A stretch of DNA of 53,760 bases from Candidatus Pacearchaeota archaeon (GCA_050124795.1 JASFEO010000005.1:1-53760), one strand, 5' to 3'. Shown: positions 19,930 through 34,806, counted from the first letter of the stretch. A program made the numbers and translations. Notes: a model not told the origin generated them from the letters alone.

Positions 19930-22233
19930 ATGGTTAAATTAAAAAAGAGGAAAATAAAGAAGTCCGGATTGGTCCGGAAGGGTGTAAAATCTTTGTTTTA
20001 CGGAGGGGTCGGGGCTGTAGCATTATTGAGTTTTGTTAATTTTTTGCCGACGAGATTTTCGCATTGTGTGGAAAAAGAAGTTGCGAGAATAGTTTATAAT
20101 AATATAAAATCTATTGAGAGAATTCCTGAAGAGTTAAAGCCTTATGGAAGCTCAGTTGTGTATCTTGATAGTGAAGGAGGAATTATTGGGGGATATGGGA
20201 GAAAGAAAAAAGGAAAGATTAGTGAGGATGCAAAGAAAGCGCTTTTAGCATGTGAAGATTATTATTTTTTTCCTCATGAAAAAAATTCATTGTTTGAAAA
20301 TCTTTTAGTTCATGAGGGAGTAAGTTTGTATAATATCGCAGGAACAATCTTTGATAGAATGAATGGAAAGAATCGCGGGGGGAGCACAATTTCTATGCAG
20401 GTTGTAAAGAAAATGATTAGGGAAGAAGATGAGGATAGAACTTATGGAAAAAAACTTGAAGAAATGATTCTTGCTTATTTGTATGAAGAAAAGTTTGGAA
20501 AGGAAAAGTTGCTTGAGCATTATATGTCAAATGTTCCGTTGGGAAATAGGGTGTCAGGATTTCAGGCAGCTGCAGAGGCTTATTTTGCAAAACCCCTTGA
20601 TAAATTGAATTTTCAGCAGTTGGTTACACTTGGTTCAATTATTCCCAATCATAATAGATTAAGGGCGTTATATAAAATTAATAATGGGAAGCTTTTATCA
20701 GAACTTTCTTCAGGACTTGAACATGCATTTGTTGATTCAAAGAATAAAATTAATTCTGCATTGCGGCGCTTGCATAAGATAAAAGAAATTAGTGATGGTG
20801 AGTTTCAGAATTGGCTTATTGAGGATGAAGAAGATGCAAAAGGGATTGGATTAAAAGGGCCTGATGTGGGGTTTTATGGAAATGATGCCTGGGCTGCAAG
20901 AGAGATTACTTCTGAAATTTTGTCTCAGAATTATTTTGTTAATGGGAATTTGGTTAGCGGGAGGGAACTTTTGCTTGATACACCCGGGGAGTCCTTAGTT
21001 ATTGAAACTGAGATTGACAGGTTTCTTGTTAATAGCATTAAGAAAAATATAAAGGAATTTTTGGAAAGTGATTATTATGACAGGATTCTTCGCCTTAGAA
21101 ATAGCCGCGTGAATAAATCTTTTGGAAAGCCGTCGTGGGAAGAAGATTTGTTGTATTACAAAAGAAATAAAATAAAACCTCCTTATGAGAATTTTGAAGA
21201 GTTTATAGGTTATCTAAAGGAAAATGTAAATATCGGAGTAATGGCTGTTAATCGGGGAGGGAATATTATTGCAAAGGTCGGGGGTAAGGAATTTTTTGTT
21301 GGAAGCAAAAGCCAGGAACCTGACTTTACAATGAAAAATAAAAAAATTATCGATATTTTAAAGAGCCCTGTGGCAGTAGGTTCAACAATTAAACCAATTA
21401 CTGCTTATTCTGCAATGGCTTTATCAGACAAAGGGGTTATTGAAGAAATTAACTTGAATACTTTATTTGCTGATATTCCCATTGAAAGAATTTATAATAA
21501 AAAACTTCGCTGTTGGGAATGGATGCCTGGAAATTGGTATGATTATGATTTGCTTGGGACCGGGAAAAACAGATATCTGGGTAGGGAATATAGTCTTCTT
21601 GAAGCGCAGGTTCTTTCTGTGAATACTATTTTTGCAAGGCTTTATTCAAACTTTTTGGTAAGAAAGGAAGTTCTTAAGATATTTGATACTGCAGGTCTTG
21701 AGTATAATCATGAGAATGCAAGGTGGTGGCCGTATGGTATTGGTTCTTTTGATGTTGATCCTGCAACTTGGCTTGGGATATATTCTGCTTTTATTGACGG
21801 GAATTATCGAAAACCTTCTATAATAAAAAATATTTTTTTGGATGGCGAAGAAATATCTAATAAATATTTTGATTTTGAAATACAGAGGATTCTTTTTTCT
21901 GATGAGGATGCAAGAAGAGCTGAAATAAAAGCATTGCATGAGGTATGCAACAGAGGTTCAGGGAGAAGGATGGAAAATTATTTTGAAGAGTTTAAAGATA
22001 GGGTCACAGGAAAAACAGGAACTGAGACTGTGCAAAAGACTTCACTTTTTGTGAGTCATTATAATTCTCACCTTGACAGGGAGGCTCATCCTGATGAAAC
22101 AATAGCAATGATTACAATTGTTACAACTAATACAGGAGGGTATAAGCGTGTTGGTTATTCAACTGAAGGGCCTGTGAGAGTCGCAGGAATGATTTATAAT
22201 GATTTGTATCAGGTTAGGCAGATACTTGAATAG
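19930..22233 (+). CDS. Class A penicillin-binding protein (GT51 transglycosylase plus transpeptidase)
   Basis: N-terminal TM; EDYYF…HEG, GGSTISMQVVK, KKLEE, KEKLLEHYMS; STIK, SVN, KTGT. Confidence 0.85.
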   Translation: MVKLKKRKIKKSGLVRKGVKSLFYGGVGAVALLSFVNFLPTRFSHCVEKEVARIVYNNIKSIERIPEELKPYGSSVVYLDSEGGIIGGYGRKKKGKISEDAKKALLACEDYYFFPHEKNSLFENLLVHEGVSLYNIAGTIFDRMNGKNRGGSTISMQVVKKMIREEDEDRTYGKKLEEMILAYLYEEKFGKEKLLEHYMSNVPLGNRVSGFQAAAEAYFAKPLDKLNFQQLVTLGSIIPNHNRLRALYKINNGKLLSELSSGLEHAFVDSKNKINSALRRLHKIKEISDGEFQNWLIEDEEDAKGIGLKGPDVGFYGNDAWAAREITSEILSQNYFVNGNLVSGRELLLDTPGESLVIETEIDRFLVNSIKKNIKEFLESDYYDRILRLRNSRVNKSFGKPSWEEDLLYYKRNKIKPPYENFEEFIGYLKENVNIGVMAVNRGGNIIAKVGGKEFFVGSKSQEPDFTMKNKKIIDILKSPVAVGSTIKPITAYSAMALSDKGVIEEINLNTLFADIPIERIYNKKLRCWEWMPGNWYDYDLLGTGKNRYLGREYSLLEAQVLSVNTIFARLYSNFLVRKEVLKIFDTAGLEYNHENARWWPYGIGSFDVDPATWLGIYSAFIDGNYRKPSIIKNIFLDGEEISNKYFDFEIQRILFSDEDARRAEIKALHEVCNRGSGRRMENYFEEFKDRVTGKTGTETVQKTSLFVSHYNSHLDREAHPDETIAMITIVTTNTGGYKRVGYSTEGPVRVAGMIYNDLYQVRQILE

Positions 22234-22245
22234 AGGTAAGGGTTG

Positions 22246-22650
22246 TTAGGGAATAATCTTTTTTATGAATCTTTCTTCAATTAAAATAGCTAATAAATGG
22301 AATGTCCCCCAGATAAAGAAAAGAGCACTTAATCTCCCCCAATTGAAATTCATCCATTCTGAACCTGGATATGCAATATAAGCAATGCCTGCTAAACCTC
22401 CGCAAACCATCATTATACTAAAATTTAAGAGGTTGTCTTTTAATTCATCATTTTCTTTTCCTAATTGAAACGCAACAATCCCAAAACCAGCCATAGAGAG
22501 GGTTATGGCTATTAAAAATTTTATAAATTCCTTATTAATCTCTAAAAATTGAATTGAATTAAAGAAAAAGGAAATGGCAACAATTAGACCTAAAATTATA
22601 GTTATTATTGTTATTAAATTCTTTTTAGATATTTTCTTTCCCATTTTCAC
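22246..22650 (-). CDS. Small four-TM membrane protein
   Basis: Hydrophobic helices; overlaps srp54 stop. Confidence 0.6.
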   Translation of the reverse strand: MKMGKKISKKNLITIITIILGLIVAISFFFNSIQFLEINKEFIKFLIAITLSMAGFGIVAFQLGKENDELKDNLLNFSIMMVCGGLAGIAYIAYPGSEWMNFNWGRLSALFFIWGTFHLLAILIEERFIKKIIP

Positions 22651-24011
22651 ATCCTAAACTTTTTCTTACCAAATTTCCTAGCAAGTTTCATCATTTGCTT
22701 TTGACTCATTGGTTTTTCAGGATCAAAACTAGACTGACTTTTTATCATTTCATTGAGCAGGTCATATTGTTTTAATAAACTTCTAATTTCTGAATTATTT
22801 ACTCCTGCGCCGCTTGCGATTCTGCCAATTCTTTTTGTTTCTTTTTTTAGAAGTTCAGGATTTTCTCTTTCTTCTTTTGTCATTGATTTAATTATGTGCT
22901 CCCATTTTGCAATTTTTTGCTGCTGCGCATCAAGCATGTTCTCTGGCAGTTTTGCATTATTCATTCCTGGAATCATTCCTTTAATTTTGTCAAATCCCCC
23001 AAGAGAATTCATTTGTTTAACTTGTTCAACAACATCTTCTAAAGTTAGTTTCCCTTCTTCTAAATTTTTTTGAATTTTCTTTTGCTTTTTTTCGTCTGTA
23101 ACTGATTTTATTTTTTCAATTAAACTTTGCAAGTCTCCCATTCCTAAAAGACGCGACAAAAAGTTTTCTGGATTAAATTCTTCTAAGTCATTAATTTTTT
23201 CACCATTTGTTATGTAATAAACAGGGGCGTGAGTTTCTGCGCAAGCTGTTAATGCTCCTCCTCCTTTTGCAGTTGAATCCATTCTTGTTATAATTACTCC
23301 TGAGATATTTACTGCATCTTTAAATTCTTCAGCCTGCTTTTTAGCTGCCTGACCAATATCAGCGGGCATAACTAAAATTGTCTCAGTTGGTTTAATCACT
23401 TTTGCTAAATCTTTAATTTCTTTTTCCAGTTCTTTGTCTAAATTATGTCTGCCGGCAGTATCAATTAAAACTAAATTATATTTTTCAAGTTCCTTAGAAA
23501 ATTTTTTATAAGTCTTGACTGCGTTATTTTCTTCGAAGTCTACAAAATAATTTAATTTATTTTTTTCAGCTAATTGTTTTAGTTGCTCTTTTGCAGCCGG
23601 CCTATGAACATCAAGTCCCAGAAGCGCAACTTTTTTCCCTCGCTTTGCAAAGTAGTTTCCGAGTTTAGCAATTGTTGTTGTTTTTCCTGCGCCGTATAAA
23701 CCAAGAAGCATGACTTTATTTTGCTCTTCACTTAATTCTAATTTTTTATATTCCCCTAAAATCTTTACAAGTTCGTCGTGGAGAAGTTTTATGATGTGTT
23801 CTTTTTTTTCAATTTCTTTTATTCTTTCATCAAGAGCTGCTTTTTTTATTTTGTCACTTAATTGTTTTACTAAAATTATGTTTACATCTGCTTCAATCAG
23901 TGCTCTTTGCAAGTCGCGCACAATTCCGTTGACTAAATTTTTGTCTAAAAAAATTGCATTTGTAATTTTGTTTGTTGCGCGTTTTAATACTTCTCCTAGT
24001 TTTTCCAGCAT
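22647..24011 (-). CDS. srp54: Signal recognition particle protein SRP54
   Basis: ALIEADV, GAGKTTT, DTAGR, AKGGGAL, LGMGD, Met-rich M domain. Confidence 0.97.
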   Translation of the reverse strand: MLEKLGEVLKRATNKITNAIFLDKNLVNGIVRDLQRALIEADVNIILVKQLSDKIKKAALDERIKEIEKKEHIIKLLHDELVKILGEYKKLELSEEQNKVMLLGLYGAGKTTTIAKLGNYFAKRGKKVALLGLDVHRPAAKEQLKQLAEKNKLNYFVDFEENNAVKTYKKFSKELEKYNLVLIDTAGRHNLDKELEKEIKDLAKVIKPTETILVMPADIGQAAKKQAEEFKDAVNISGVIITRMDSTAKGGGALTACAETHAPVYYITNGEKINDLEEFNPENFLSRLLGMGDLQSLIEKIKSVTDEKKQKKIQKNLEEGKLTLEDVVEQVKQMNSLGGFDKIKGMIPGMNNAKLPENMLDAQQQKIAKWEHIIKSMTKEERENPELLKKETKRIGRIASGAGVNNSEIRSLLKQYDLLNEMIKSQSSFDPEKPMSQKQMMKLARKFGKKKFRM

Positions 24012-24012
24012 T

Positions 24013-24837
24013 TTATAATTCTAAGTTGTCCAGAGGACTTTTAATATTTTCTAAATCTGATTTTGCAATGTGAGTATAGATCTGCGTTGTTCTTAAATTT
24101 TTGTGACCAAGGAGTTTCTGAATTTTTCTTAAATCTATTCCCTGCTCCAGAAGATGCGTTGCAAAACTATGCCTTAAAACATGGGGTCTTATTTTTTTTT
24201 GAATTGCTTTTATTGATGCTTTTTCAATTATTTTTTCAATTGTTTTGGGAGAGTATTTTTTTCTTCTGTTTGATTCAAATAAATAATTTTTAGGAGATTC
24301 TTTTAATAAATAAGTTAAGAGTTCTTTTTCAAGATTATTTGGGAAGAGCATGATTCTGTCTTTTGCGCCTTTTCCCTGGCGCACGACGATGATTTTTCTT
24401 TCGATGTCTATGTTATTTGGTTTTAAATTTAAAAGTTCAGAAACTCTTATTCCAGAAGCATACATTAATTTAATCATAATTTTGTGTTTTGGGTTTTCAA
24501 TTGATTGAATTATTTTTATTGTTTGTTCTTTATTCAAGACTTCAGGAATTTTTGATTCTTTTTTATAATGCGGAAGAAGGAATTCTTTTGATTTTCCAAG
24601 AGTATTAAATAAGATTTTAAGTGCAGCATATTTTTGTTTAATGTAACTTGTGCTTTGGTTTTTGTTAATTGAGTCTAGTATATATTTTTTAACTTCATCA
24701 TTTGTTATTTTATTCGAACTTTTTTTTAAGAAGTCATTTAAAATATTCATATAAGCTTTTATTGTTTTATTTGAGAGATTGTTTAGTTTTAGGAAATTCT
24801 CATATTCACTTTTAATCGAAATTATATCCTGATTCAT
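24013..24837 (-). CDS. Tyrosine recombinase, integron-integrase-like but lacking the IntI insertion
   Basis: SGIRVSE, RQGKGAKDR, HVLRHSFATHLLEQG, LLGH…TTQIYTH, C-terminal SPLD. Confidence 0.9.
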   Translation of the reverse strand: MNQDIISIKSEYENFLKLNNLSNKTIKAYMNILNDFLKKSSNKITNDEVKKYILDSINKNQSTSYIKQKYAALKILFNTLGKSKEFLLPHYKKESKIPEVLNKEQTIKIIQSIENPKHKIMIKLMYASGIRVSELLNLKPNNIDIERKIIVVRQGKGAKDRIMLFPNNLEKELLTYLLKESPKNYLFESNRRKKYSPKTIEKIIEKASIKAIQKKIRPHVLRHSFATHLLEQGIDLRKIQKLLGHKNLRTTQIYTHIAKSDLENIKSPLDNLEL

Positions 24838-24877
24838 TATTGAATTAATAAAGAGAAGTTTAAATAATTTTCTAAGA

Positions 24878-24900
24878 AGTTCGATTAAAAGTTGTTATGT
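24878..24900 (+). other. Candidate attI site (core GTTATGT at 24894)
   Basis: GTTATGTG is the exact complement of CACATAAC opening the first attC-like site; lies just upstream of the integrase promoter. Confidence 0.6.
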
Positions 24901-24947
24901 GCAATATTACTCGGGCACTTTTTTCTTCTAAATGTTATCAAGAAATC

Positions 24948-25817
24948 TTATAATCCACTATTTTGAAGTCTCTGTTTCGCAGCAGAAATTTCAGCATAAT
25001 CTCTTGCAGTGGGTTGTGGAAATGGATCAAATCCTAACTCGGCAACAAGCCAGCTTTCTCTTGAATTTGGTCTTCTCCAACTAAATCTTGAAGCAATTTC
25101 TCTATCTTGTTCTATTGACCTTGCAGTTGAAAGACTTTCTTCTCTAATTTCTTGTACAGAATCTAAAACAGACTGTAGAGAATCCGCTTCAAAACCTTTT
25201 TCAGCACAATATTGAGCATTATCACATAATGTATTAACTGCATTTGACCATCCTCTATTACCTTCATTTCTTGCCATTTCCATATAATGACTTACCCCTC
25301 GCTTATATGCTTCAGGTGTTAAATCTTTCTGTAATTCTTGTGGACAAGTTTCCAAACGACCATACAATCCTTCAGGTAATTTCACATATGGATAAGGAAA
25401 TCCTAATCCAACTGTAATTTCCAAACTCTTCATTGTTGCTTCAATATCTTTTTCTGCTTCAACTATTGCTCCAGTTTTTAGATGATCCCTAAATCGAGCA
25501 ATATGTTCTTGCATATGAGAATTAGCTTTATCAACATATGATTGCAACATTGGATTAACCCAACTATGAATTCTTTTGGCTCCAACAACCGAAAGTCTTC
25601 TAATGCTCACTGGTTCATCAAATGGAGTAGAATTCCATCTCATAACTTGATAAACTGTAGGTGGGTTGCTATCATGCAAGAATCCAATATATGTTCTATG
25701 ATTCGTGAATAATGTTGGATGTGTTTCTTTAGGAAATACATTATTGAAATGCCCATTAGGAAGAACTAAGTAAGTATCTCCTTCTTGTCTGACAACATTA
25801 TTAACTGGCTCAATCAT
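24948..25817 (-). CDS. Cassette 1: hypothetical protein
   Basis: 289-aa ORF with own TATA-like box, between attI and the first attC. Confidence 0.75.
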   Translation of the reverse strand: MIEPVNNVVRQEGDTYLVLPNGHFNNVFPKETHPTLFTNHRTYIGFLHDSNPPTVYQVMRWNSTPFDEPVSIRRLSVVGAKRIHSWVNPMLQSYVDKANSHMQEHIARFRDHLKTGAIVEAEKDIEATMKSLEITVGLGFPYPYVKLPEGLYGRLETCPQELQKDLTPEAYKRGVSHYMEMARNEGNRGWSNAVNTLCDNAQYCAEKGFEADSLQSVLDSVQEIREESLSTARSIEQDREIASRFSWRRPNSRESWLVAELGFDPFPQPTARDYAEISAAKQRLQNSGL

Positions 25818-25952
25818 AAATTAGTGAATAAGCTAATTCTTTAAATAGTTTTCTACTTCAAAATAGTAATCTGATTTCTTAATAACGAAAAAAGTGCCCT
25901 GCGTCATACTGTGCCTACGCTTCGCTTCGGCATTTTTTCTTGCAGAAAAAAC

Positions 25953-26064
25953 ACATAACAGCGATTAAGAGACTCCGCCTTGCAGGCTCCGTCCAAATTG
26001 AATTTTTGGAGGTCGCTACGCTCCACTCTCAAAAATCCAACTTCTCTTAATCGCGATGTTAATT
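25953..26064 (+). repeat. attC-like site 1
   Basis: ACATAAC-AGCGATTAAGAGA … TCTCTTAATCGC-GA-T-GTTAATT. Confidence 0.8.
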
Positions 26065-26115
26065 GCAATTTGAGATTTGGGCTAAAAATAGAAAGGGCTT
26101 TGGTTTTGTATATAC

Positions 26116-26892
26116 TCATTGATATTCTTGCTTTGCAATACCTAAAAGAATATTTCTCACCATTTTAAGAGTATTTGGTTGAACTTTATCTAAAGTGTCA
26201 TGAAATCCATTAATTTCCAATTTTTCTAATATTTTTGGAGTCGGTCCTCCTTCTGATTCCCATAACCTTCCTAGGTCAGATGAAACCGTAGAGAAAACAG
26301 TAGAATCAATTCCTGCTTGATTTAAAATAACATTATCTGAAGGAGGAGTTCCCGCATAAAAAAAAGGAATATTCAACTCAGTACATACTTTTTGGATTCT
26401 TCCATTCATGGCTTCTGAATTTTTAACATAGTCTTCCCACGATAAATCATAAGATTTACTACCTAACATAATTGCATTTCCTCTACCAGTTACCTCGAGA
26501 TTATATACTTTTGATAAATTCAAAAAGGGATCATTTACATATCCTTTTGAACCAATTAATCCAATTTCTTCTCCGTCAAAGAATAAAAACCCAAAAGGTA
26601 TTGGAGAACCTTCCTTCACCATTTTCTCTAAGGTTGACAACATCTCGATTACTGCAGAACCATTATCCAAAATTCCATCTCCTTCAGGGGTTTTGTCATA
26701 ATGTGCAGAAAATGCTGAAACTGGTAAATTTTTTGAATTTCCATAAACTACCCCAATATTTAGTAATTCTAAACCATCGTGGGATATTTTTTGTCTTAGA
26801 GGAGTCATTCCCATAGAACTTAAATTATCTAAAATAAATTCCCTTCGTGAATTATAATCACATCCCGAGTAATCTGCAATTCGGTCTAACAT
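26116..26892 (-). CDS. Cassette 2: M28-family zinc peptidase
   Basis: SAHYD, GILDNGSA, DGEEIGLIGS, SDN, HDTLD. Confidence 0.85.
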   Translation of the reverse strand: MLDRIADYSGCDYNSRREFILDNLSSMGMTPLRQKISHDGLELLNIGVVYGNSKNLPVSAFSAHYDKTPEGDGILDNGSAVIEMLSTLEKMVKEGSPIPFGFLFFDGEEIGLIGSKGYVNDPFLNLSKVYNLEVTGRGNAIMLGSKSYDLSWEDYVKNSEAMNGRIQKVCTELNIPFFYAGTPPSDNVILNQAGIDSTVFSTVSSDLGRLWESEGGPTPKILEKLEINGFHDTLDKVQPNTLKMVRNILLGIAKQEYQ

Positions 26893-26943
26893 AATTCTTG
26901 ATAATTATGTAAAAGTTATAAACCTTTCGGATAGTTACTATTA

Positions 26944-27893
26944 TGTGCTCCCACCTGACATATGTCGTAGGCTAAAATAACAAACTAAAATCATTATAAA
27001 CTTCATCAGGAGTTTTATTATTCAAACTCATATGAGGTCTGAAATGATTATATCTCATTCTCCAAAGTTCAGGATCTCCATTGCAAAACTTAAACTCTCT
27101 TTTGAAAGTCTGAAATAATCTTTCGACCTTCCCTTGAGTTGTTGGGCTATGAATTGCCCCGCGAATATGTTTAATCCCTTTTTTTCTCAATTTCACATCA
27201 AATCTGGAATGTTTGCTTTTCAATCCATATGCTGAACCATTATCAGTTAAAATCTCTCTGGGTTTTCCATAAACTTTGATTAAATCATCAATTAATTTAA
27301 TCACAACATCTGTTGTAACCCGATTAACAGGAACAAAAGCTAAACTTTTTCTCGAACAATCATCGACGACAGAAATAACATATTTATTCTTAATCTTTTG
27401 GTCGCTGTGATCAATCTGCCAAAGAGAATTAGGAGTCTTTCTTTGCCAGCGAATATATTTAATTCGCCTCTTTCTTCTTTTAGGATTATTAACTAATTTA
27501 TTTTTATTGAGAATTTTATTAATTGTTGTATGACTTAATGAAACAAGACCCTCAATCTTCTCAGCTCCCCAACCAGTTTCTTTTTTTATCTCCACAATTT
27601 TGCTTTCTAATTCAGAAGTTATCTTTCGATAAATTGTTTTTGGTTTTCTTGATTTATCCCTTAAATTCCAATCTGAATTATTCAGTTTATTTGTCCACCT
27701 TCTTAATGTCCTTATGTTAACTTCATAATTAAACTTAGCAAAGAGTATTTTCCTGCATTGGTTATTAGTGTGCCCCTTGATTCTAAGCTTGAAATATTCT
27801 TTTCTGATTAATTCTTTTTTCATTCAAAACCGAAGAAATCATCTGCGAACTAATTTTCGGTTTTGCCTAGGACATATGTCCCTTGCTTATACA
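26944..27893 (-). mobile_element. IS481-family insertion sequence
   Basis: Both ends read TGT-N10-GACATATGTC(G/C)TAGGC; single transposase; no target duplication seen. Confidence 0.85.
26972..27823 (-). CDS. IS481-family DDE (rve) transposase
   Basis: HTH, WQID, DDCSR, TDNGS, QGKVER, YNHFRPH. Confidence 0.92.
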   Translation of the reverse strand: MKKELIRKEYFKLRIKGHTNNQCRKILFAKFNYEVNIRTLRRWTNKLNNSDWNLRDKSRKPKTIYRKITSELESKIVEIKKETGWGAEKIEGLVSLSHTTINKILNKNKLVNNPKRRKRRIKYIRWQRKTPNSLWQIDHSDQKIKNKYVISVVDDCSRKSLAFVPVNRVTTDVVIKLIDDLIKVYGKPREILTDNGSAYGLKSKHSRFDVKLRKKGIKHIRGAIHSPTTQGKVERLFQTFKREFKFCNGDPELWRMRYNHFRPHMSLNNKTPDEVYNDFSLLF

Positions 27894-28401
27894 TCTTTAT
27901 CATGGTTTGAAATCAATGAAGATAAAGAAAATTGATTTTCAAGATTTGGTAAATGAACTCGCTGGTAATAATAAATTAAAGAAAGTGTTTTATTATACTG
28001 CAAGAATGGATAAGAATTTTGATGAGAAAAGATACGCCAAGCATCAAAAATTTCTTAAGAAACTTTCATCTATTCCGAACTTTAAAATTTCATATTGCAC
28101 TTTCAAGAAAATCATCGAAAAAAATGGTAAAGTCAGTTATGCTGTTAAAGGCGATGATGTTCAGCTAGCAAATGATATGATTGTTGGAGCCTATGAAAAC
28201 CTTTATGATATTGCAATATTGGTTTCAGGAGATGAAGACTTCAAGCCAGTTGTGCGTACAGTAAGAAAACGAGGAAAGGTAGTTGAAAATATTTTCTTTA
28301 GAGGAGGATCTTCATCAAGATTAAGGAAAACTTGTAACTCATCAAAGAACATTCGTTTTATTTTAGAAAAAATAAATAGGCGTCCTGGCATTACAGAGTA
28401 A
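27894..28401 (+). pseudogene. 5'-truncated NYN (LabA/DUF88, PIN-like) nuclease gene
   Basis: YYT, KGDDV, AILVSGDEDF, GKVVE; the N-terminal DxxN motif is replaced by the IS end. Confidence 0.8.
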
Positions 28402-28625
28402 CCCAGGACAGTTATTAGTATTATCACTAATCTAAACTTTAAAAATTCTTCGGTTGCCTAATTTTCGCCTTTCGTGGCGACTTACTTTTTAGAAAAAAGT
28501 AAGCAAAAAGCGCGCGCTTCCCACCCTAAGAATGGAGATTTAAATTTTCTTAACGCAGAAGAAAAAACTCCTTCGCCTTCGGCTCGGTGCCGTCTTGCAG
28601 ACTTTCGGCATAAATGCCTCACACG

Positions 28626-28749
28626 ACTTAACAGGGGATAAAGAGTAATTTCTTGCAGAAATTCCCCAAATTCTTCTTCCAGCTCGAGCCTGTGAGGTTC
28701 CGCTCCAGTCTCGAGGTCAGAAGAACTTTCCTTAAGCCCAATGTTAAGA
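28626..28749 (+). repeat. attC-like site 2
   Basis: ACTTAAC-AGGGGATAAAG … CTTAAGCCCAAT-GTTAAGA. Confidence 0.7.
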
Positions 28750-28919
28750 AAAATATTTCCACTTTCTCCGTCGCTGTTTTAACTTTTATCGTCGGAGATA
28801 AATCTCAAATTCTGATTTTGATATCTCCGCTTAACGCTCCAATGCGAAATTAAAATTGTCGCATAACATCGCTGATTAAACGAAATTTTTGAAAAATAAA
28901 AATAATAAAAACGAAAGAT

Positions 28920-29162
28920 TTATTCTAATTCTTTTTCTAATTCACTTAGACCTTTGTTCTCACCATATTTGATTTTGTTATAGAATCCTAATCCCATTGA
29001 CGCCAAAAATGCACCGCCAATCAAATATGGGTGGTCGAAGCTTTTGTCGCCGACAACATCAACAACTCCTGCAACCATTGAACTTGATGCCACGCCAAAA
29101 GCAAATCCATCATAGAATTCTCTAAGTGAATATTCTCTTAGTTTTTGAATTTTGTCATTCAT
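28920..29162 (-). CDS. Cassette: small two-TM membrane protein
   Basis: 80-aa ORF with BRE/TATA and GGAG upstream. Confidence 0.7.
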   Translation of the reverse strand: MNDKIQKLREYSLREFYDGFAFGVASSSMVAGVVDVVGDKSFDHPYLIGGAFLASMGLGFYNKIKYGENKGLSELEKELE

Positions 29163-29357
29163 TTTAATTCTCCTTACTAAGAGAATAAATTAATAGTTTA
29201 TAAATCTTTCGTTAATTTACTACTTGAAAGTTAATAACTTATTTTTCAAAAACTACGATATCAAAGAATTTTCGAAAGTGGAAATACTCTTCGGAATTTT
29301 TTTGCTTCGCAAAAAACCACTTGCAGTTATTCCTCGTCCTCGCCTTTGGCTCGGATT

Positions 29358-29481
29358 TCTTAACAGCGATTAAAACTCCGCTCCGTTGCACTCCGCTACG
29401 CCCTTCGGTTTTGTGGGATGCCTCAAAACCTACGGGGAAATAAATCCTTCGGATTTACTTCTCTTAATCGCGATGTTATAC
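29358..29481 (+). repeat. attC-like site 3
   Basis: TCTTAAC-AGCGATTAA … TTAATCGC-GA-T-GTTATAC. Confidence 0.8.
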
Positions 29482-29558
29482 GAAATTTCAAACCCTGTCT
29501 TGATGTAGAAAAGATTAAATAGGATCTGTTTTAATTAACATATTAGAGGATATAAAAT

Positions 29559-29957
29559 ATGAAAAAAGTAGAAAAAATTAACAATAATACTTTAGCCGTT
29601 ATAATTGGATTAGTGATTAGTATCGGCTGGATTTTTATGGGGCTTGATATTGGCTTCCAATTTGTGGCTCCAGATCAAATAAGTTACATACTAACATTGG
29701 CTGGGCAACGCCATACTATTATGACCCTATTAGCTTTAGTTCTAATTCCAATATGTGCCAGAGAAAATCGATGGGGTTTATTATCTGCAATGATTCTAGG
29801 AATAGTCACATTAACTTTATCGTTAGCCCACATCATCTATATGCTAATTGCTACTCCTTCTGGATTTGAATCACAAATATTTGGGCCCACGATTTGGTCT
29901 ATAATTCAAATACCAATAATATTTTTTGGTTATAAAGCTCAACAAGCATTGAGATAG
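29559..29957 (+). CDS. Cassette: four-TM membrane protein
   Basis: 132-aa hydrophobic ORF, GAGGA upstream. Confidence 0.75.
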   Translation: MKKVEKINNNTLAVIIGLVISIGWIFMGLDIGFQFVAPDQISYILTLAGQRHTIMTLLALVLIPICARENRWGLLSAMILGIVTLTLSLAHIIYMLIATPSGFESQIFGPTIWSIIQIPIIFFGYKAQQALR

Positions 29958-30083
29958 TTAAGCCGAATTTACTTAGAGGTAATCATACATCTGATTTTTG
30001 AAAAATTTAAGATATTAGTAAAAACCGCAGGGTTTGAAACTCAAGGGGGCGCTGCGCTTTCGTCGCTATTGCTCCTCACCCTC

Positions 30084-30183
30084 GTATAACAAGGGATAAA
30101 AGGAAAATTGTTCGGCTCGCAATTTTCCCAAATTTTTCTTCCACTTCGTTCCAGAAAAACTTCCCTTAAGCCCGATGTTAAAT
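30084..30183 (+). repeat. attC-like site 4
   Basis: GTATAAC-AAGGGATAAAAGG … CCCTTAAGCCCGAT-GTTAAAT. Confidence 0.75.
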
Positions 30184-30340
30184 CTAATTCTAAAACCTGC
30201 CTACCAAGACTAAAATAAAAATTATAATGTTGTTATCTTCGTTAAAATCATAAAGAAAAAACTTACAAAATTGCTACGCAGCTTTGCCTAACAAAATTTT
30301 AACGAAATTGTTGAAAAATAAAAATTATAGAACGAAAGAT

Positions 30341-30673
30341 TTACTTTTTTGTTTCTTGATTTATTCTAGATAGAATTGTTTTGTATAATTCTTGTGCTTT
30401 AGCTTTTTCCATATTGTCTGGAAGAATGTCGGCTGTTCCGTCTCTGTCTTTGTCGTAAAATGAAAGTTCAATTCCTTCTGGAGTTTTTAGTCTTAATCTA
30501 TAATCAGATGTCCATCCATGTCCCTTTCCCCAAGATGTTTGTTCGTAAACAACCCGATTTCCATCTATGTTTCCTGCATAGATTAAGCCTTTATTACTTT
30601 CATCTTTACCACAGCCTGACAAAGCTAAAGCTCCTGCCAAAACAATTCCAGTTAATGTTCTTTTGATTGTCAT
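30341..30673 (-). CDS. Cassette: putative lipoprotein
   Basis: Signal peptide with lipobox LSGC; DKDRDGTAD acidic loop. Confidence 0.7.
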   Translation of the reverse strand: MTIKRTLTGIVLAGALALSGCGKDESNKGLIYAGNIDGNRVVYEQTSWGKGHGWTSDYRLRLKTPEGIELSFYDKDRDGTADILPDNMEKAKAQELYKTILSRINQETKK

Positions 30674-30842
30674 ACAATAAAGAATAAATCAATACTTTAT
30701 AAATCTTTCGTTTCTTTTACTACTTTGAAGTTAATAATCTATTTTTCAACAACTACGATAACAACGAATTTTCGGCGAGCCCTGAACTTCTCCCTTCGGT
30801 CGACCACGTTGCACTCTCACTTCACTTCGTTTCGTTTGGGGA

Positions 30843-30979
30843 GTTTAACAGCGATTAAGAGGAAAATCCCTTGCAGGAATTTTCCCAAATCCTCGCCATC
30901 TCTGAAAAAATTTCCAGCTCTGTTTCACGAGGGAAATTTTTTCGAGGGCTTCGGACTTCTCTTAAGCCCGATGTTAAAC
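30843..30979 (+). repeat. attC-like site 5
   Basis: GTTTAAC-AGCGATTAAGAG … CTCTTAAGCCCGAT-GTTAAAC. Confidence 0.8.
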
Positions 30980-31026
30980 TCAATAAATTTGAAGTCCTAA
31001 AAAATAGAAAGGGGGCAGTTGCATAA

Positions 31027-31317
31027 CTACTTCTTGATTATTTTCTCCAGATTAATCTTATATTTCTCAAAAGCATCTTTCTTAAATGTGTAATGCACAT
31101 GCATTCCTTTTTTTTCAGATTCAAGCATTCCAGCATCAACTAACAACTTTAAATGTTTAGACACAGCAGGTTGAGATATATTAAGATTTCTCACAATAGC
31201 AGATACACACAAACTATGTTTTGAAAGCAATTCTAGAATTTTTAATCTATTTGAATCTCCTAAAAGTTTTGCAATCTTTGCAGTTTCTTCTATCAATTTG
31301 CTTCCCATAAATGGCAT
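31027..31317 (-). CDS. Cassette: ArsR/SmtB-family regulator
   Basis: LGDSNRLKIL, LCVSAI, SQPAVSKHL, G…HY. Confidence 0.9.
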   Translation of the reverse strand: MPFMGSKLIEETAKIAKLLGDSNRLKILELLSKHSLCVSAIVRNLNISQPAVSKHLKLLVDAGMLESEKKGMHVHYTFKKDAFEKYKINLEKIIKK

Positions 31318-31337
31318 ATAACTTAATGACTATTTAT

Positions 31338-31955
31338 TTATTTGCTTTTTTCATATTTAATTGCTTTTACGGGACAAGAATCCGAACATTCAAAACATAA
31401 AAGACAATTCTTTTTATCAATATTCAAGTTTTCATCAATAGCAACTCCAGGACAAATTTTCTCACATTTTTTACAATTAATACATTTATTTGTTTTTTTG
31501 ATCTGCATTCTTGAAAACCTTGCTGTTAATGAAAAAAGCATTCCCCATGGACACAAATATCTATGCCAAGTTCTAGCGTCAAATATAATTGTAGCAAATA
31601 ATCCTAATCCAATTATTATCAAAGGAAGAGGAAAGTTTTTACCCTGTTTCATCAACATTATCTTAAAAACAAAGCCAATTATGAAAAGAATGAATAAAGA
31701 GTATCTTAATAGCTCATTCTTGAAAAATGCCTTAATTTCTTTATTTTTGAATCCTAATTTCCTCTTTATTTTGTCAATAGGTGTTATAATTGTATTTATT
31801 GGGCATACCCACTCACAATAAAATCTTCCAAAGAAAAAAGACCCTATCAGAAACAGTAATACTATCCCCATCCAGATTTTATTTTTTTCTAAGATTATCA
31901 AAGTAAAAAAAATTAACAAAAACAAAAATTGGATTCCTTTTCTGATTTTTTGCAT
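31338..31955 (-). CDS. Cassette: membrane 4Fe-4S binding protein (NapH/MauN/YccM-like)
   Basis: GRFYCEWVCP, YLCPWG, two CxxCxxCxxxCP motifs; ATG at 31955 or 31967 is more plausible than 32075. Confidence 0.85.
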   Translation of the reverse strand: MQKIRKGIQFLFLLIFFTLIILEKNKIWMGIVLLFLIGSFFFGRFYCEWVCPINTIITPIDKIKRKLGFKNKEIKAFFKNELLRYSLFILFIIGFVFKIMLMKQGKNFPLPLIIIGLGLFATIIFDARTWHRYLCPWGMLFSLTARFSRMQIKKTNKCINCKKCEKICPGVAIDENLNIDKKNCLLCFECSDSCPVKAIKYEKSK

Positions 31956-31956
31956 T

Positions 31957-32094
31957 TTATTTTTCATTGCATAAACAGTTTCCTTTGAAGCAGTCTTTTC
32001 CTTCTTTGGTTCTTTTGATAACAATTTCAGAACCATTATCTTCAATTGTTCCAATTTCTTTTCCTTTGCATACAATCTTACATTCTCCGCACAT
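31957..32094 (-). CDS. Cassette: 45-aa Cys-rich peptide not in the ORF track
   Basis: MCGECKIVCKGKEIGTIEDNGSEIVIKRTKEGKDCFKGNCLCNEK; GGAGGT upstream; stop 1 nt before the next ATG. Confidence 0.7.
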   Translation of the reverse strand: MCGECKIVCKGKEIGTIEDNGSEIVIKRTKEGKDCFKGNCLCNEK

Positions 32095-32308
32095 TTTTAA
32101 TACCTCCTAATATTTAGTTATATAATCATATAATTATATTGTTATATATTTAAACCTTTCGATTCGTTATGCAACTGCCCCTCAATCTTGTTTTTGATGT
32201 ATCGCTGTCGCTTATTGGATAAAACGGACTTCAAATTTACTTTGAATTTTTCCTTCGCTTCGCTACGGAACGTTGCACTAATCCTCGGTCTCCGTTTCAC
32301 TCCGACGG

Positions 32309-32429
32309 ATATAACAGGAATTTAACGGAAAAATGCTCGGCTCGCATTTTTCCCAAATTTGATTTTCCAGCTCTGTTACGCTTCGCTTCACGAGGGAAAA
32401 TCAAACTTCGTTAAATTCCGATGTTATAA
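32309..32429 (+). repeat. attC-like site 6 (array end)
   Basis: ATATAAC-AGGAATTTAACG … CGTTAAATTCC-GA-T-GTTATAA. Confidence 0.8.
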
Positions 32430-32463
32430 AATATTTTAAAAACTTCTTTTGCTTTGTTAGTTA

Positions 32464-33600
32464 ATGAAAAAGGGTGAAGGAAATTCCAGAAATGTTTGGC
32501 TATTGGGAGGCTCAAGTTTTTTTAATGATGTTGGAAGTGAAATGATTATGCCGATTTTACCGTTTTATATTTTGGCTCTTGGGGGCGGAGGTATTGCTCT
32601 TGGTCTTGTTTCAGGTTTGCGTGAGGGGTTGTCAAGTTTGTTTAAAATTTTTGGAGGATATGTTTCTGACAGAACAGGAAAAAGAAAAGTTTTTGTTTTC
32701 TTTGGTTATCTTTTTTCAGTTGTTTTTAGATTTTTTCTCGGGCTTGTAAATTCCTGGCAATATCTTGTTACTTTTATTTCCCTGGAGAGATTTGGAAAAT
32801 TCAGGGATTCTCCTCGTGATGCCATGATTTCTGAAGAGAAAAAAACTTCAGGAAAAAATTTTGGAATATTGCAGATGATGGATACTCTTGGCGCTATTTT
32901 GGGAATTATTTTAGTATTTATATTTTTTTGGAAATTTAATTTTAGTTTTAAGACAATAATTTTCTTGGCTGCAGGGATATCTGTGTTTTCATTGTTGTTT
33001 TTAATTTTTGTAAAAGATTCAAAAGTTAAGAAGTCAAAAAAAAGTTTATTGAAGGGGATAAGTGGTTTGAATAAAAATTTAAAATATTTTATTTTTGTTT
33101 CATCTGTTTTTTCTTTTGCGAATTTCGGGCTTTATATGTTTTTGTTATTGGTTGCAAAGGAATTTACAGGAAGTTATGTTTATTCAATTTTGTTTTATCT
33201 TATTTTTAATGTGGTTTATGCATCTATGCTGGTTCCTTTTGGAAAATTGTCTGACTGGGTCGGAAGAAAAAAAATTCTTGTTCTTGGGTATTTATCATTT
33301 TTTGGAGTTAGTCTTGGGTTTATTTATTTTCAGACTTTTTTTCATCTGGTTGTTTTATTTATTCTTTATGGATTTGTTTATGCAATAAAATATCCCTGTC
33401 AAAAGGCGCTTGTGTCTGATTTGTCAGGGGAGATGAAGGGAACTGCATTTGGATTATTTAATATGTCAATTGGTTTGGCAGGAATTCCAGGCGGGATAAT
33501 CGCAGGAATTTTATGGAATGCAAGTCATGATTTAATGTTTGGTTATTTATCTGTAATTTCAGTTGCTGCACTATTTTTATTAATTTTTGTTCGGGAATAA
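32464..33600 (+). CDS. MFS transporter
   Basis: About 12 TM; GYVSDRTGKRK and GKLSDWVGRKK motif A. Confidence 0.9.
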   Translation: MKKGEGNSRNVWLLGGSSFFNDVGSEMIMPILPFYILALGGGGIALGLVSGLREGLSSLFKIFGGYVSDRTGKRKVFVFFGYLFSVVFRFFLGLVNSWQYLVTFISLERFGKFRDSPRDAMISEEKKTSGKNFGILQMMDTLGAILGIILVFIFFWKFNFSFKTIIFLAAGISVFSLLFLIFVKDSKVKKSKKSLLKGISGLNKNLKYFIFVSSVFSFANFGLYMFLLLVAKEFTGSYVYSILFYLIFNVVYASMLVPFGKLSDWVGRKKILVLGYLSFFGVSLGFIYFQTFFHLVVLFILYGFVYAIKYPCQKALVSDLSGEMKGTAFGLFNMSIGLAGIPGGIIAGILWNASHDLMFGYLSVISVAALFLLIFVRE

Positions 33601-33615
33601 TTTTTAGAAAACTTC

Positions 33616-34806
33616 TCACAACCCCAATCTTTCAATAAATTTTTTTTTATCAAATACTTCAATTGTATTATATTCCTGACCGGTGCCCAAATAAAGAATT
33701 GGTTTTTTTGTAACAAACCCAACTGACAATGCTGTTCCACCTTTTTCGTCAATGTCTGCTTTTGATAAAATTATCCCGTCGATTCCAATTGCCCAGTCAA
33801 AACTTCTGACTTGTTCTATTGCGTCGTTGCCTGTTAAACTTTCGCCGACGAAAATTTTGCAGTCTGGTTTACAGACTTTTGCAACTTTTTCAATTTGATG
33901 CATTAAATTTTTTTCAGTATACATTCTACCGGCTGTATCAATTAAAACACAGTCAATTCTGTTTTTTTCTGCGAATTTAATTGCATCAAAACCAACTGCT
34001 GCAGGGTCTGAATTATATTCATGCGCAATAACTTTTACATCTAGTTTATTCCCATGAGTTTTTAATTGTTCAATTGATGCTGCTCTAAATGTGTCAGCTG
34101 CTGCCATAACGCAGGTTAGTTTTTCTTTTTTTAATTGTTCTGCAATTTTCGCAATTGTTGTTGTTTTTCCAGTTCCATTAATTCCGCAAAATAAAATCAC
34201 ATAAGGCTTTTTTTCAGTTTCTCTTTTTTCTCTGATTCTTTCAGGGATGGAAAATGGCTCAATTAAAATTTCATTAATTATTTCTTTAAAGCAATCTTTA
34301 ATTTCTTCTTCAATTTCTTTTTTTAATAATTCCTGACCGACAATTTTTTCTTTTAGTTCTTTAATTATTTTTTCAGCAACCTCCAAAGCAACATTATTTT
34401 CAAGAAGCAAAAGTTCAAGTTCATCTGCATAGTTTTCAAATTCTTTTTCAGTGATTTTTATTTTTGTTATTTTTGAAGCAACTTTTTTAAAAAAACCTTT
34501 TTTATCTTCTTTAATATCCGGAAGTGTTTCTTCAGGTTCTTTTTTTTCCAAAGGAGTTTGGTCTTCTTTTTTTTGAGGTTCTTCTTTAGTTTCTTTTTCA
34601 GTTTTTTCTTTTGACTTTTCCTTTTCCTTTTTTCCTTTTTTATCTGGCTCTTTAATTTTTTCTTTTACTTTTTCAATTATCTCTTTTTTTAATTTTTTAA
34701 CTTCCTCTTCTTTTGCAATTTCTTCAATAACTTCTTCTTTTTCTTCCTGATTTTTTGAAATGTTTTTTGTCCAGGATTTTAATTTTTCTTTAAATGATTT
34801 GAACAT
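33616..34806 (-). CDS. ftsY: SRP receptor FtsY
   Basis: GINGTGKTTT, DTFRAAS, DTAGR, KGG, GTGQ; charged N-terminus. Confidence 0.96.
   Translation of the reverse strand: MFKSFKEKLKSWTKNISKNQEEKEEVIEEIAKEEEVKKLKKEIIEKVKEKIKEPDKKGKKEKEKSKEKTEKETKEEPQKKEDQTPLEKKEPEETLPDIKEDKKGFFKKVASKITKIKITEKEFENYADELELLLLENNVALEVAEKIIKELKEKIVGQELLKKEIEEEIKDCFKEIINEILIEPFSIPERIREKRETEKKPYVILFCGINGTGKTTTIAKIAEQLKKEKLTCVMAAADTFRAASIEQLKTHGNKLDVKVIAHEYNSDPAAVGFDAIKFAEKNRIDCVLIDTAGRMYTEKNLMHQIEKVAKVCKPDCKIFVGESLTGNDAIEQVRSFDWAIGIDGIILSKADIDEKGGTALSVGFVTKKPILYLGTGQEYNTIEVFDKKKFIERLGL

Follow-up and report, generated by a model that had tools for sequence, protein, structure and literature searches.

The stretch analysed here, hereafter the window, comprises 53,760 nt of a Candidatus Pacearchaeota archaeon (GCA_050124795.1, JASFEO010000005.1:1-53760) and lies on contig C5 of a metagenome-assembled genome (MAG; here G000) of 38 contigs and 1.06 Mb that is 90% complete. 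It carries a gene for a 274-aa tyrosine recombinase of the XerA family (24013-24837, minus strand) and, upstream of it on the opposite strand, six related hairpin elements of 94-131 nt, all on the plus strand, separating genes that a Pfam search finds to be mutually unrelated. This arrangement is probably an integron-type gene-cassette platform whose adjacent recombinase is an archaeal XerA paralogue and not an integron integrase (IntI). A non-canonical integron-type system had been proposed in the original prediction, which was made from the sequence alone, and the elements, their junctions and the linked XerA-type recombinase support it. The label of a DPANN-like host also fits, on indirect grounds: G000 encodes ribosomal protein L31e, whose model matches archaeal control genomes only, the genome is small, and the best named relative of the recombinase among the matches listed (at least 600, mostly bacterial Xer-like genes) is found in a Pacearchaeota MAG.

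The recombinase matches PF00589 at 143.5 bits, and its R-K-H-R-H-Y set is complete, with R131, K156, H219, R222, H245 and Y254 invariant. IntI is defined by an additional segment that is needed for its function, according to the portions of PMC9668308 and PMC8138268 available to us. In the window protein, the distance from the KDR to the YLF motif is 24 residues. Against the integron integrase model TIGR02249 the protein scores 179.8 bits, below the cut-off of 265, and aligns in two stretches that skip profile positions 180-232. Vibrio cholerae IntI4 (2a3v) likewise aligns in two stretches, and about 40 residues of its chain (198-237) have no counterpart. The best matches in the PDB are the XerA structures 4a8e and 5hxy (Pyrococcus abyssi and Thermoplasma acidophilum), each aligned in one single stretch, and there is no insertion or deletion relative to XerA-clade relatives. 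The predicted absence of the IntI-specific segment, also named the I2 helix, with KDR close to YLF and with the gene divergent from the array, is thus confirmed.

The elements, numbered E1 to E6 from the recombinase outwards, resemble attC sites, and each ends one cassette. E1 (25956-26061) ends cassette 1 (24895-26058), E2 (28629-28746) cassette 2 (26059-28743), E3 (29361-29478) cassette 3 (28744-29475), E4 (30087-30180) cassette 4 (29476-30177), E5 (30846-30976) cassette 5 (30178-30973) and E6 (32312-32426) cassette 6 (30974-32423), all on the plus strand. All six open with TAAC(A) and close with C(G/A)ATGTTA. The pattern TAACA-N88-118-CRATGTTA has six matches in the window against 0.14 expected, a number reached in 0 of 100 shuffles. 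Five of these matches are elements, and the sixth (28864-28980, minus strand) is a chance pairing with no hairpin element; E4 lies outside the gap range of the pattern and was missed by it.

The elements share one architecture, in which a 5-bp outer box (TAACA/TGTTA) leads through a 2-nt bulge directly into an inner box of 11 bp plus one or two inner hairpins, with no unpaired central spacer. The bulge (GA, or AA in E2) lies on the 3′ arm of the plus strand directly beside the outer box, and the inner motifs CCCAAATT and AACTTC are common to every copy. When folded as single-stranded DNA (ssDNA), E1-E6 gave z scores of -2.0 to -7.7 for the plus strand and -1.7 to -7.2 for the minus strand, the minus-strand fold being the more stable one in six of six elements. 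E6 is the best-formed hairpin (z -7.7; 103 bits with R1, the covariance model that we built from this element family), E1 pairs at 13 of 14 stem positions (z -3.65 on the plus and -4.03 on the minus strand), and E4 has the weakest stem (z -2.0 and -1.7, respectively). In an alignment of 33 elements from five genomes, 86.4% of stem cells were paired, compared with 30-42% when the partner column was slid by 1-3 columns. Changes on both sides were seen in 9 of the 11 inner-box pairs, and the covariation score was matched by none of 500 shuffles. In the AAC/GTT box, both A:T pairs are kept in all 33 sequences and the C:G pair in 32. Since pairing is preserved over about 100 nt despite sequence change, the folded form, either a single-stranded hairpin or a cruciform, appears to be what is used. 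The six related palindromes between unrelated genes that had been predicted hold up in number over expectation and in their covarying stems. An Rfam scan of 24000-33000 with E values up to 1 returned no matches.

Three elements have chimeric 3′ arms. The last ~12 nt of E2, E4 and E5 (28733-28746, 30167-30180 and 30963-30976) share the sequence ..AAGCCC(G/A)ATGTTA, and their 5′ arms are of differing types despite this common end, so that the stems are mismatched; a similar chimera occurs on contig C34. Such arms may reflect a second exchange point within the inner box, or gene conversion between sites.

An attI-like core (24875-24897, plus strand) lies beside the recombinase gene, ends in GTTA (24894-24897) and has cassette 1 to its right. 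The core is kept in the nearest relative, G002 (two contigs, 88% complete), whose recombinase is 67% identical to that of the window. The upstream regions of the two genomes are alike up to ..AAAAG(T/G)TGTTA and diverge immediately afterwards. Read from the sequence, the core holds no evident 11-6-11 double-stranded palindrome, and attI cores vary between recombinase groups. A 23-nt inverted repeat, 83% complementary (arms 24801-24823 and 24877-24899), spans the recombinase start codon and the region upstream of it; both arms are kept in G002, the right one containing the attI core, and the repeat is possibly a folded attI or an autoregulatory site.

Junctions elsewhere in the genome place the crossover at the same sequence. 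One cassette end is present in four identical copies over at least 133 nt including the element, on contig C3 and three other contigs (two of the copies are cut by a contig end at ~133 nt), and four different sequences begin exactly after the ..AATGTT of these identical ends. The base that precedes ATGTT goes along with the element upstream, which limits the crossover to ATGTT(A), an interval consistent with the classical G|TT and not resolved more finely. Furthermore, in 8 of 23 consecutive pairs of elements, the 7 nt that follow the GTT of one are complementary, at six or more of seven positions, to the 7 nt that precede the AAC of the next; this holds for 2.2% of the remaining pairs and in 4 of 32 comparisons between the two flanks of one element. 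Passage of cassettes through a circle would be expected to leave such complementarity across the cassette. The R″/R′ layout put forward in the original prediction is borne out, together with junctions of the G|TT type, by the conservation of attI up to GTTA, the four contexts after ATGTT and the flank complementarity. We also considered a crossover at the left AAC, with the cassettes read on the minus strand and the integrase downstream, as suggested by the minus-strand genes and the bulge position; this was rejected because the sequence is continuous across the left end of the element and broken at its right end.

On C3, a cassette without an open reading frame (ORF) lies behind an attI and is followed by a 100% identical tandem copy behind its own element, which suggests recent integration. 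The tandem (L001 105-850, two copies with a period of 373 nt and no convincing ORF) is directly behind the attI of a second recombinase. Cassettes start with a common motif, GTT followed by five variable bases and (C/G/A/T)AAT, for example at 24894-24908, 26058-26072 and 30973-30987 of the window. The left flanks of the elements show no counterpart of this motif, and it may be a one-sided recognition feature.

Across G000, a profile search found 25 elements on 8 of the 38 contigs, of which six are in the window, two at the start of C3 and 17 on six small contigs, and no copy on the remaining 30; R1 likewise yields 25. Their orientation is uniform within each contig. The genome has two PF00589 genes, both with elements directly upstream on the opposite strand. 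The second encodes a 260-aa recombinase (C3:922-1704) that is 42% identical to that of the window and scores 200.8 bits with the XerA model NF040815, below its cut-off of 220. The original prediction had named palindromes scattered through the genome independently of this recombinase as an observation that would speak against it. Because the elements are clustered and both recombinase genes stand beside clusters, they are neither scattered nor independent of the recombinase.

To place the window among its relatives, we compared 61 related genomes. Homologues of the recombinase are present in 53 of them and R1 elements in 27. Elements lie on the contig of the recombinase at 12 loci in 11 genomes, the nearest one within 1.6 kb at 11 of these loci and at 9.8 kb at the twelfth. 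From the relatives, 77 recombinase loci were fetched with more upstream than downstream sequence. All 28 R1 matches in these loci are upstream of the recombinase on the opposite strand; the fetched sequence biases the upstream position, and does not bias the strand. A contig end falls within 1 kb upstream of 21 of 72 recombinase genes and within 1 kb downstream of 3 of 72, an excess of the kind that repeat arrays cause in assemblies. A sequence-blind hairpin scan of the relatives' loci (TAAC/GTTA anchors, at least 11 of 14 stem positions) gave seven matches and nothing beyond the profile searches.

The recombinases themselves were compared in an unrooted tree of 70 proteins, two partial proteins having been excluded from the 72 genes. 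A XerA clade of 42 rows, with a support of 99 in the approximate likelihood ratio test of the Shimodaira–Hasegawa type (SH-aLRT), covers 40 genomes at roughly one copy per genome and contains no array-linked protein: 25 rows have no array in at least 3 kb upstream, 12 had too little sequence fetched and five are at contig ends. The remaining 28 rows are made up of every array-linked protein (10 rows), 14 of the 19 at contig ends, one undecided row and three rows without arrays that fall in a divergent clade of seven. The window recombinase lies outside the 42-row clade. Of the 19 genomes that encode an array-group recombinase, 12 have a further copy inside that clade. With the XerA model the array group scores 207-244 bits versus 249-258 in the 42-row clade, and with the IntI model 179-201 versus 205-229. 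Judged from these sequences, the array-group proteins appear to be diverged XerA paralogues and not relatives of IntI. A repeat search of the XerA-clade relatives G059, G043 and G048 found no such arrays. In G043 and G048, the region upstream of the XerA-clade gene contains other clusters of short repeats, for example of the CTGTTCAAACA and GTGAGAGTTAGCA types (L046 5837-6904 and L048 5190-7224).

The flanks of the array are conserved. To the left of the window recombinase lies an SRP54 gene (22647-24011, minus strand), 80% identical to the gene beside the G002 recombinase, and to the right an FtsY gene (33616-34806, minus strand), 8.8 kb from the recombinase. In G002, the SRP54-recombinase pair is followed by at least 10 elements over 19.5 kb and then by FtsY (67% identical), 25.5 kb from the recombinase, and no cassette protein is common to the two arrays. 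The search with a covariance model for syntenic arrays with different cassettes, proposed with the original prediction, thus found one in G002 at SRP54/FtsY, and relatives with the same genes and no palindromes, which would have told against a cassette system, are not what this locus presents: its genes are others and the palindromes are there. G002 has one tyrosine recombinase gene only. Two further R1 matches (G002:C1:91658-94790) form a detached cluster ~277 kb from this gene.

The source run (X1) and other metagenomes (X2, X3 and X7) were examined as assembled contigs, which demonstrate presence only. Cassette 6 is found in contigs of X2 and X3, which come from other habitats, with 95-100% identity. 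One X2 contig has a different attC 3′ arm before position 30968, and one X7 contig has a different attC 3′ arm joined to 24893, the start of cassette 1. These joins fit cassettes moving between contexts. Two joints in X1 (26103->29197 and 28507->29313) have sides of 24-28 nt in repeats and were not interpreted.

The cassette genes are found on either strand, mostly on the minus strand in the window and mostly on the plus strand in G002. Cassette 1 has a 289-aa gene of no Pfam family (24948-25817, minus strand). Cassette 2 carries an M28 peptidase (26116-26892, minus strand; PF04389, 71.3 bits), an IS481-type transposase (26972-27823, minus strand; rve domains, NF033577 174.6 bits, below the cut-off of 224) and a NYN-domain protein (27883-28401, plus strand; PF01936, 70.1 bits). 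Cassettes 3, 4 and 5 each hold one gene without a family, encoding 80 aa (28920-29162, minus strand), a hydrophobic protein of 132 aa (29559-29957, plus strand) and 110 aa with a lipoprotein-like N-terminus as read from the sequence (30341-30673, minus strand), respectively. Cassette 6 has an ArsR-type regulator (31027-31317, minus strand; PF01022) and a membrane 4Fe-4S protein (31338-32075, minus strand; PF12801/PF00037). The motif CGAAAGRTTTAWAA, which we take to resemble an archaeal promoter with a B recognition element (BRE) and TATA box, occurs four times on the minus strand of the window (26916-26929, 29198-29211, 30697-30710 and 32148-32161) against 0.46 expected. All four copies are inside the array, 24-73 nt upstream of minus-strand cassette genes, and from this motif the cassettes apparently bring their own promoter.

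Some features within and around the array stand apart from this pattern. Word depth in X1 averages 133 over the bin 26889-27209 (transposase 3′ end and flank), versus ~37 beside it and 32.1 along the remainder of the gene, and both ends of the transposase region coincide with contig breaks (26971/26987 and 27996/28020). We read the IS481-type element as an insertion sequence (IS) that landed in the array; by these depths it may be single- or multi-copy. In cassette 3, an inverted copy of an attC 3′ arm (..TTTAATCAGCGATGTTA, minus strand) lies at 28810-28895, with its minus-strand end at 28864-28880, after the 80-aa gene; it has a homologue in the ORF-less C3 cassette (L001 350-420 and 725-790) and may represent a cassette end that is nested or inverted. 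In cassettes 3 and 5, the gene lies between ~22-nt inverted repeats (28876-28897/29240-29262 and 30299-30320/30740-30761), and the flanking frames are 77-89% alike between the two cassettes. X7 contigs match these frames and not the enclosed genes (joints 28887->29251 and 30343->30671). Between the last element and FtsY, an MFS-type transporter gene (32464-33600) has no element after it and was not found in G002 with the window query; it may be a terminal cassette without its site, or ordinary flank. Further to the left, a 767-aa protein (19930-22233) scores 143 bits, below cut-off, for a PBP1A-type peptidoglycan glycosyltransferase domain, in what is otherwise an archaeal-looking genome.

Taken as a mechanism, these features suggest the following scheme. 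Each cassette would end in an imperfect palindrome of 90-170 nt that folds into a hairpin with outer box, 2-nt bulge and inner box. Strand exchange by the recombinase would take place within the invariant ATGTT(A), at the hairpin's 3′ edge, and join cassettes to the attI-like site beside the recombinase gene or to each other; the cassettes, in either orientation, would carry their own promoter-like motif. The folded bottom (minus) strand would be the substrate, with one strand exchanged and the product resolved by replication, as in integrons and CTX-phage integration. More speculatively, the bulge would produce spacer arms of unequal length, 6 nt versus 4 nt, and thereby set the active strand and monomer. 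For the wider proposal, that DPANN archaea hold a second integron lineage without IntI, in which XerA paralogues lacking the additional domain shuffle promoter-bearing cassettes through hairpins with the bulge on the opposite arm, we lean slightly in favour.

Several observations weigh against this interpretation. The bulge shares its arm with the crossover AAC of the minus strand, the opposite of the classical attC rule; either strand choice works differently here, or our strand assignment, which was drawn from the junctions, is wrong. Three of the six window elements (E2, E4 and E5) have mismatched chimeric arms, and E4 folds weakly. R1 is silent over 10 kb upstream of the recombinase of G018, a member of the array-linked group that has an attI-like junction only, and with filters off it gave no matches on G018 and four named archaeal loci. 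Silence of R1 in a relative means the absence of an array of this element family only. Owing to the common ancestry of the related genomes, the recurring linkage of arrays to the recombinase does not represent independent events. The lack of a TIGR02249 match above cut-off in the 61 genomes comes from a search with no positive control, as 0 of 14 control genomes match either. That the window recombinase performs the cassette reaction is our inference from contigs, which give no direct sign of activity. Finally, the protein scores 234.5 bits with NF040815, above the cut-off, and neither G000 nor G002, at 90% and 88% completeness, has another XerA-type gene, so that a double role as housekeeping XerA is conceivable. 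The window enzyme may simply be the housekeeping enzyme in this lineage.

This last point leads to the most serious alternative, in which the attI core is dif, the enzyme is the housekeeping XerA, and small elements resembling integrative mobile elements exploiting Xer (IMEX) have piled up beside it with no dedicated integrase. The passing of the XerA model speaks for it, as does the fact that G000 and G002 have no other kind of tyrosine recombinase, and the outer box, which resembles a Xer-arm motif, can be counted on the same side. In some archaea xerA is adjacent to dif, and dif is where phages of the CTX type integrate as folded ssDNA (PMC5357621, in the portion available to us). We nevertheless consider this explanation unlikely. 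G000 has two platforms whose recombinases are 42% identical, where one chromosome should not need two dif sites, and 12 of the 19 array-group genomes also have a copy in the array-free XerA clade. Neither the difference in attI cores between recombinase groups nor the lack of an evident 11-6-11 palindrome is what dif would lead one to expect, and a search of the genome for dif-like short palindromes gave 130 unspecific matches and picked out no dif. A housekeeping XerA acting on dif had been listed in the original prediction as an outcome that would overturn it, and this outcome is not borne out, as the protein stands outside the main XerA clade of relatives, with the nuance that it passes the XerA model and that G000 and G002 have no other XerA-type gene.

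The array could also be an ordinary archaeal cluster of attC sites lacking an integron integrase (CALIN), in which a canonical IntI, from this organism or a different one, acts in trans on classical attC sites and the adjacent recombinase is unrelated to them. Reported archaeal integrons are mostly such IntI-less clusters (6 IntIs versus 539 attCs in 75 genomes), and archaeal attCs are recombined by bacterial IntI1, as the portion of PMC9668308 available to us reports. We regard this as very improbable, given that none of the 61 genomes has a TIGR02249 match above cut-off, that the same geometry of array and recombinase recurs in 12 loci of 11 genomes with the attI-like core conserved along with the recombinase, and that the sites have no unpaired central spacer and carry the bulge on the other arm than classical attC. 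Even less credible is the view that the hairpins are palindromic intergenic repeats, akin to miniature inverted-repeat transposable elements (MITEs) or repetitive extragenic palindromic (REP) sequences, which spread by transposing or serve a terminator or regulatory role, cassette recombination playing no part. The motifs CCCAAATT and AACTTC in all copies, the insertion sequence in the array and the position of the elements between genes would suit such repeats. Uniform orientation per cluster, the 30 contigs without a copy, the exact common breakpoints at ATGTT, identical modules in four contexts and flank complementarity across cassettes, not within elements, would not, and no target-site duplications were seen at the element ends. 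We therefore retain the integron-type platform with an adjacent XerA paralogue as the favoured reading.

If it is correct, the consequences reach beyond this genome. The IntI insertion is the protein feature that defines integron integrases and guides their detection by software, and it is held essential because it reads the extrahelical bases of the folded attC. The window system would mean that this insertion is no prerequisite for hairpin-cassette recombination and that another structural solution exists. The integrase of many 'integrase-less' archaeal attC clusters would then have been overlooked, and the search space for integrons would widen. The system would either have arisen by convergence or stand as a present-day model of the transition from Xer to IntI, and would offer a small and simple pair of recombinase and hairpin for studying strand choice by tyrosine recombinases. 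It also bears on how genome-reduced, host-dependent archaea take up accessory genes.

Compared with classical integrons, the window shares the order of a divergent tyrosine recombinase, an attI-like site and an array of unrelated genes, as well as an AAC...GTT imperfect palindrome at the end of each block with the crossover in or at GTT. In both, the beginning of a cassette is complementary to the flank on the left of the site that ends it, the fold of the bottom strand is the more stable one, and sites within one genome resemble one another. The window differs in that its recombinase is a XerA paralogue without the IntI insertion, and that its sites have a single 2-nt bulge on the crossover-proximal arm and no central spacer, whereas classical attC has its extrahelical bases across from the cleaved AAC, on the other arm of the recombined bottom strand (PMC5027507, in the portion available to us). 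Moreover, its cassettes lie in either orientation with their own promoter-like motif, whereas classical ones rely on the cassette promoter (Pc). In archaea, integrons were described in 75 MAGs with 6 IntIs and 539 attCs, most arrays being without an integrase, and the accepted IntIs, detected with IntegronFinder, all have the additional domain; for the IntI-less arrays, the portion of that paper available to us names no recombinase (PMC9668308). These CALINs are like the window in being arrays of attC-type hairpins in archaeal MAGs, including Nanoarchaeota/DPANN, as far as that portion goes. In the full-text literature, which leaves subscription journals and the supplements of PMC9668308 outside, we came upon no paper that connects attC arrays in archaea with recombinases of the XerA type. 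Archaeal integrons with a canonical IntI or without an integrase are already known, and the link to a XerA paralogue would be the new part.

With the XerA/dif system (4a8e and 5hxy), the window shares the protein family and length, the full catalytic set and the alignment in one stretch. The target of XerA is a single double-stranded 11-6-11 site of 28 bp, generally not adjacent to its gene (PMC2958812). The window gene, in contrast, is tied to arrays of ~100-nt hairpins and lies outside the one-per-genome XerA clade. The pdif modules of Acinetobacter plasmids are similar in being Xer-bounded gene modules thought to be moved by Xer recombinases. They differ in having 28-bp double-stranded sites of alternating orientation on plasmids, with no uniform hairpin array beside a recombinase gene. 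The closest mechanistic precedent is the IMEX integration of the CTX type, in which a Xer-type enzyme works on a folded single strand: XerCD, which has no IntI insertion, integrates the CTX phage genome through an intra-strand hairpin of ~150 nt that mimics the site, according to the portion of PMC5357621 available to us. There, a bacterial phage hijacks the housekeeping pair at dif, without a dedicated paralogue, an attI beside the gene or a promoter-bearing cassette array. Since a Xer recombinase without the insertion uses a folded single strand in the CTX system, the same chemistry would, by analogy, be plausible for the window system.

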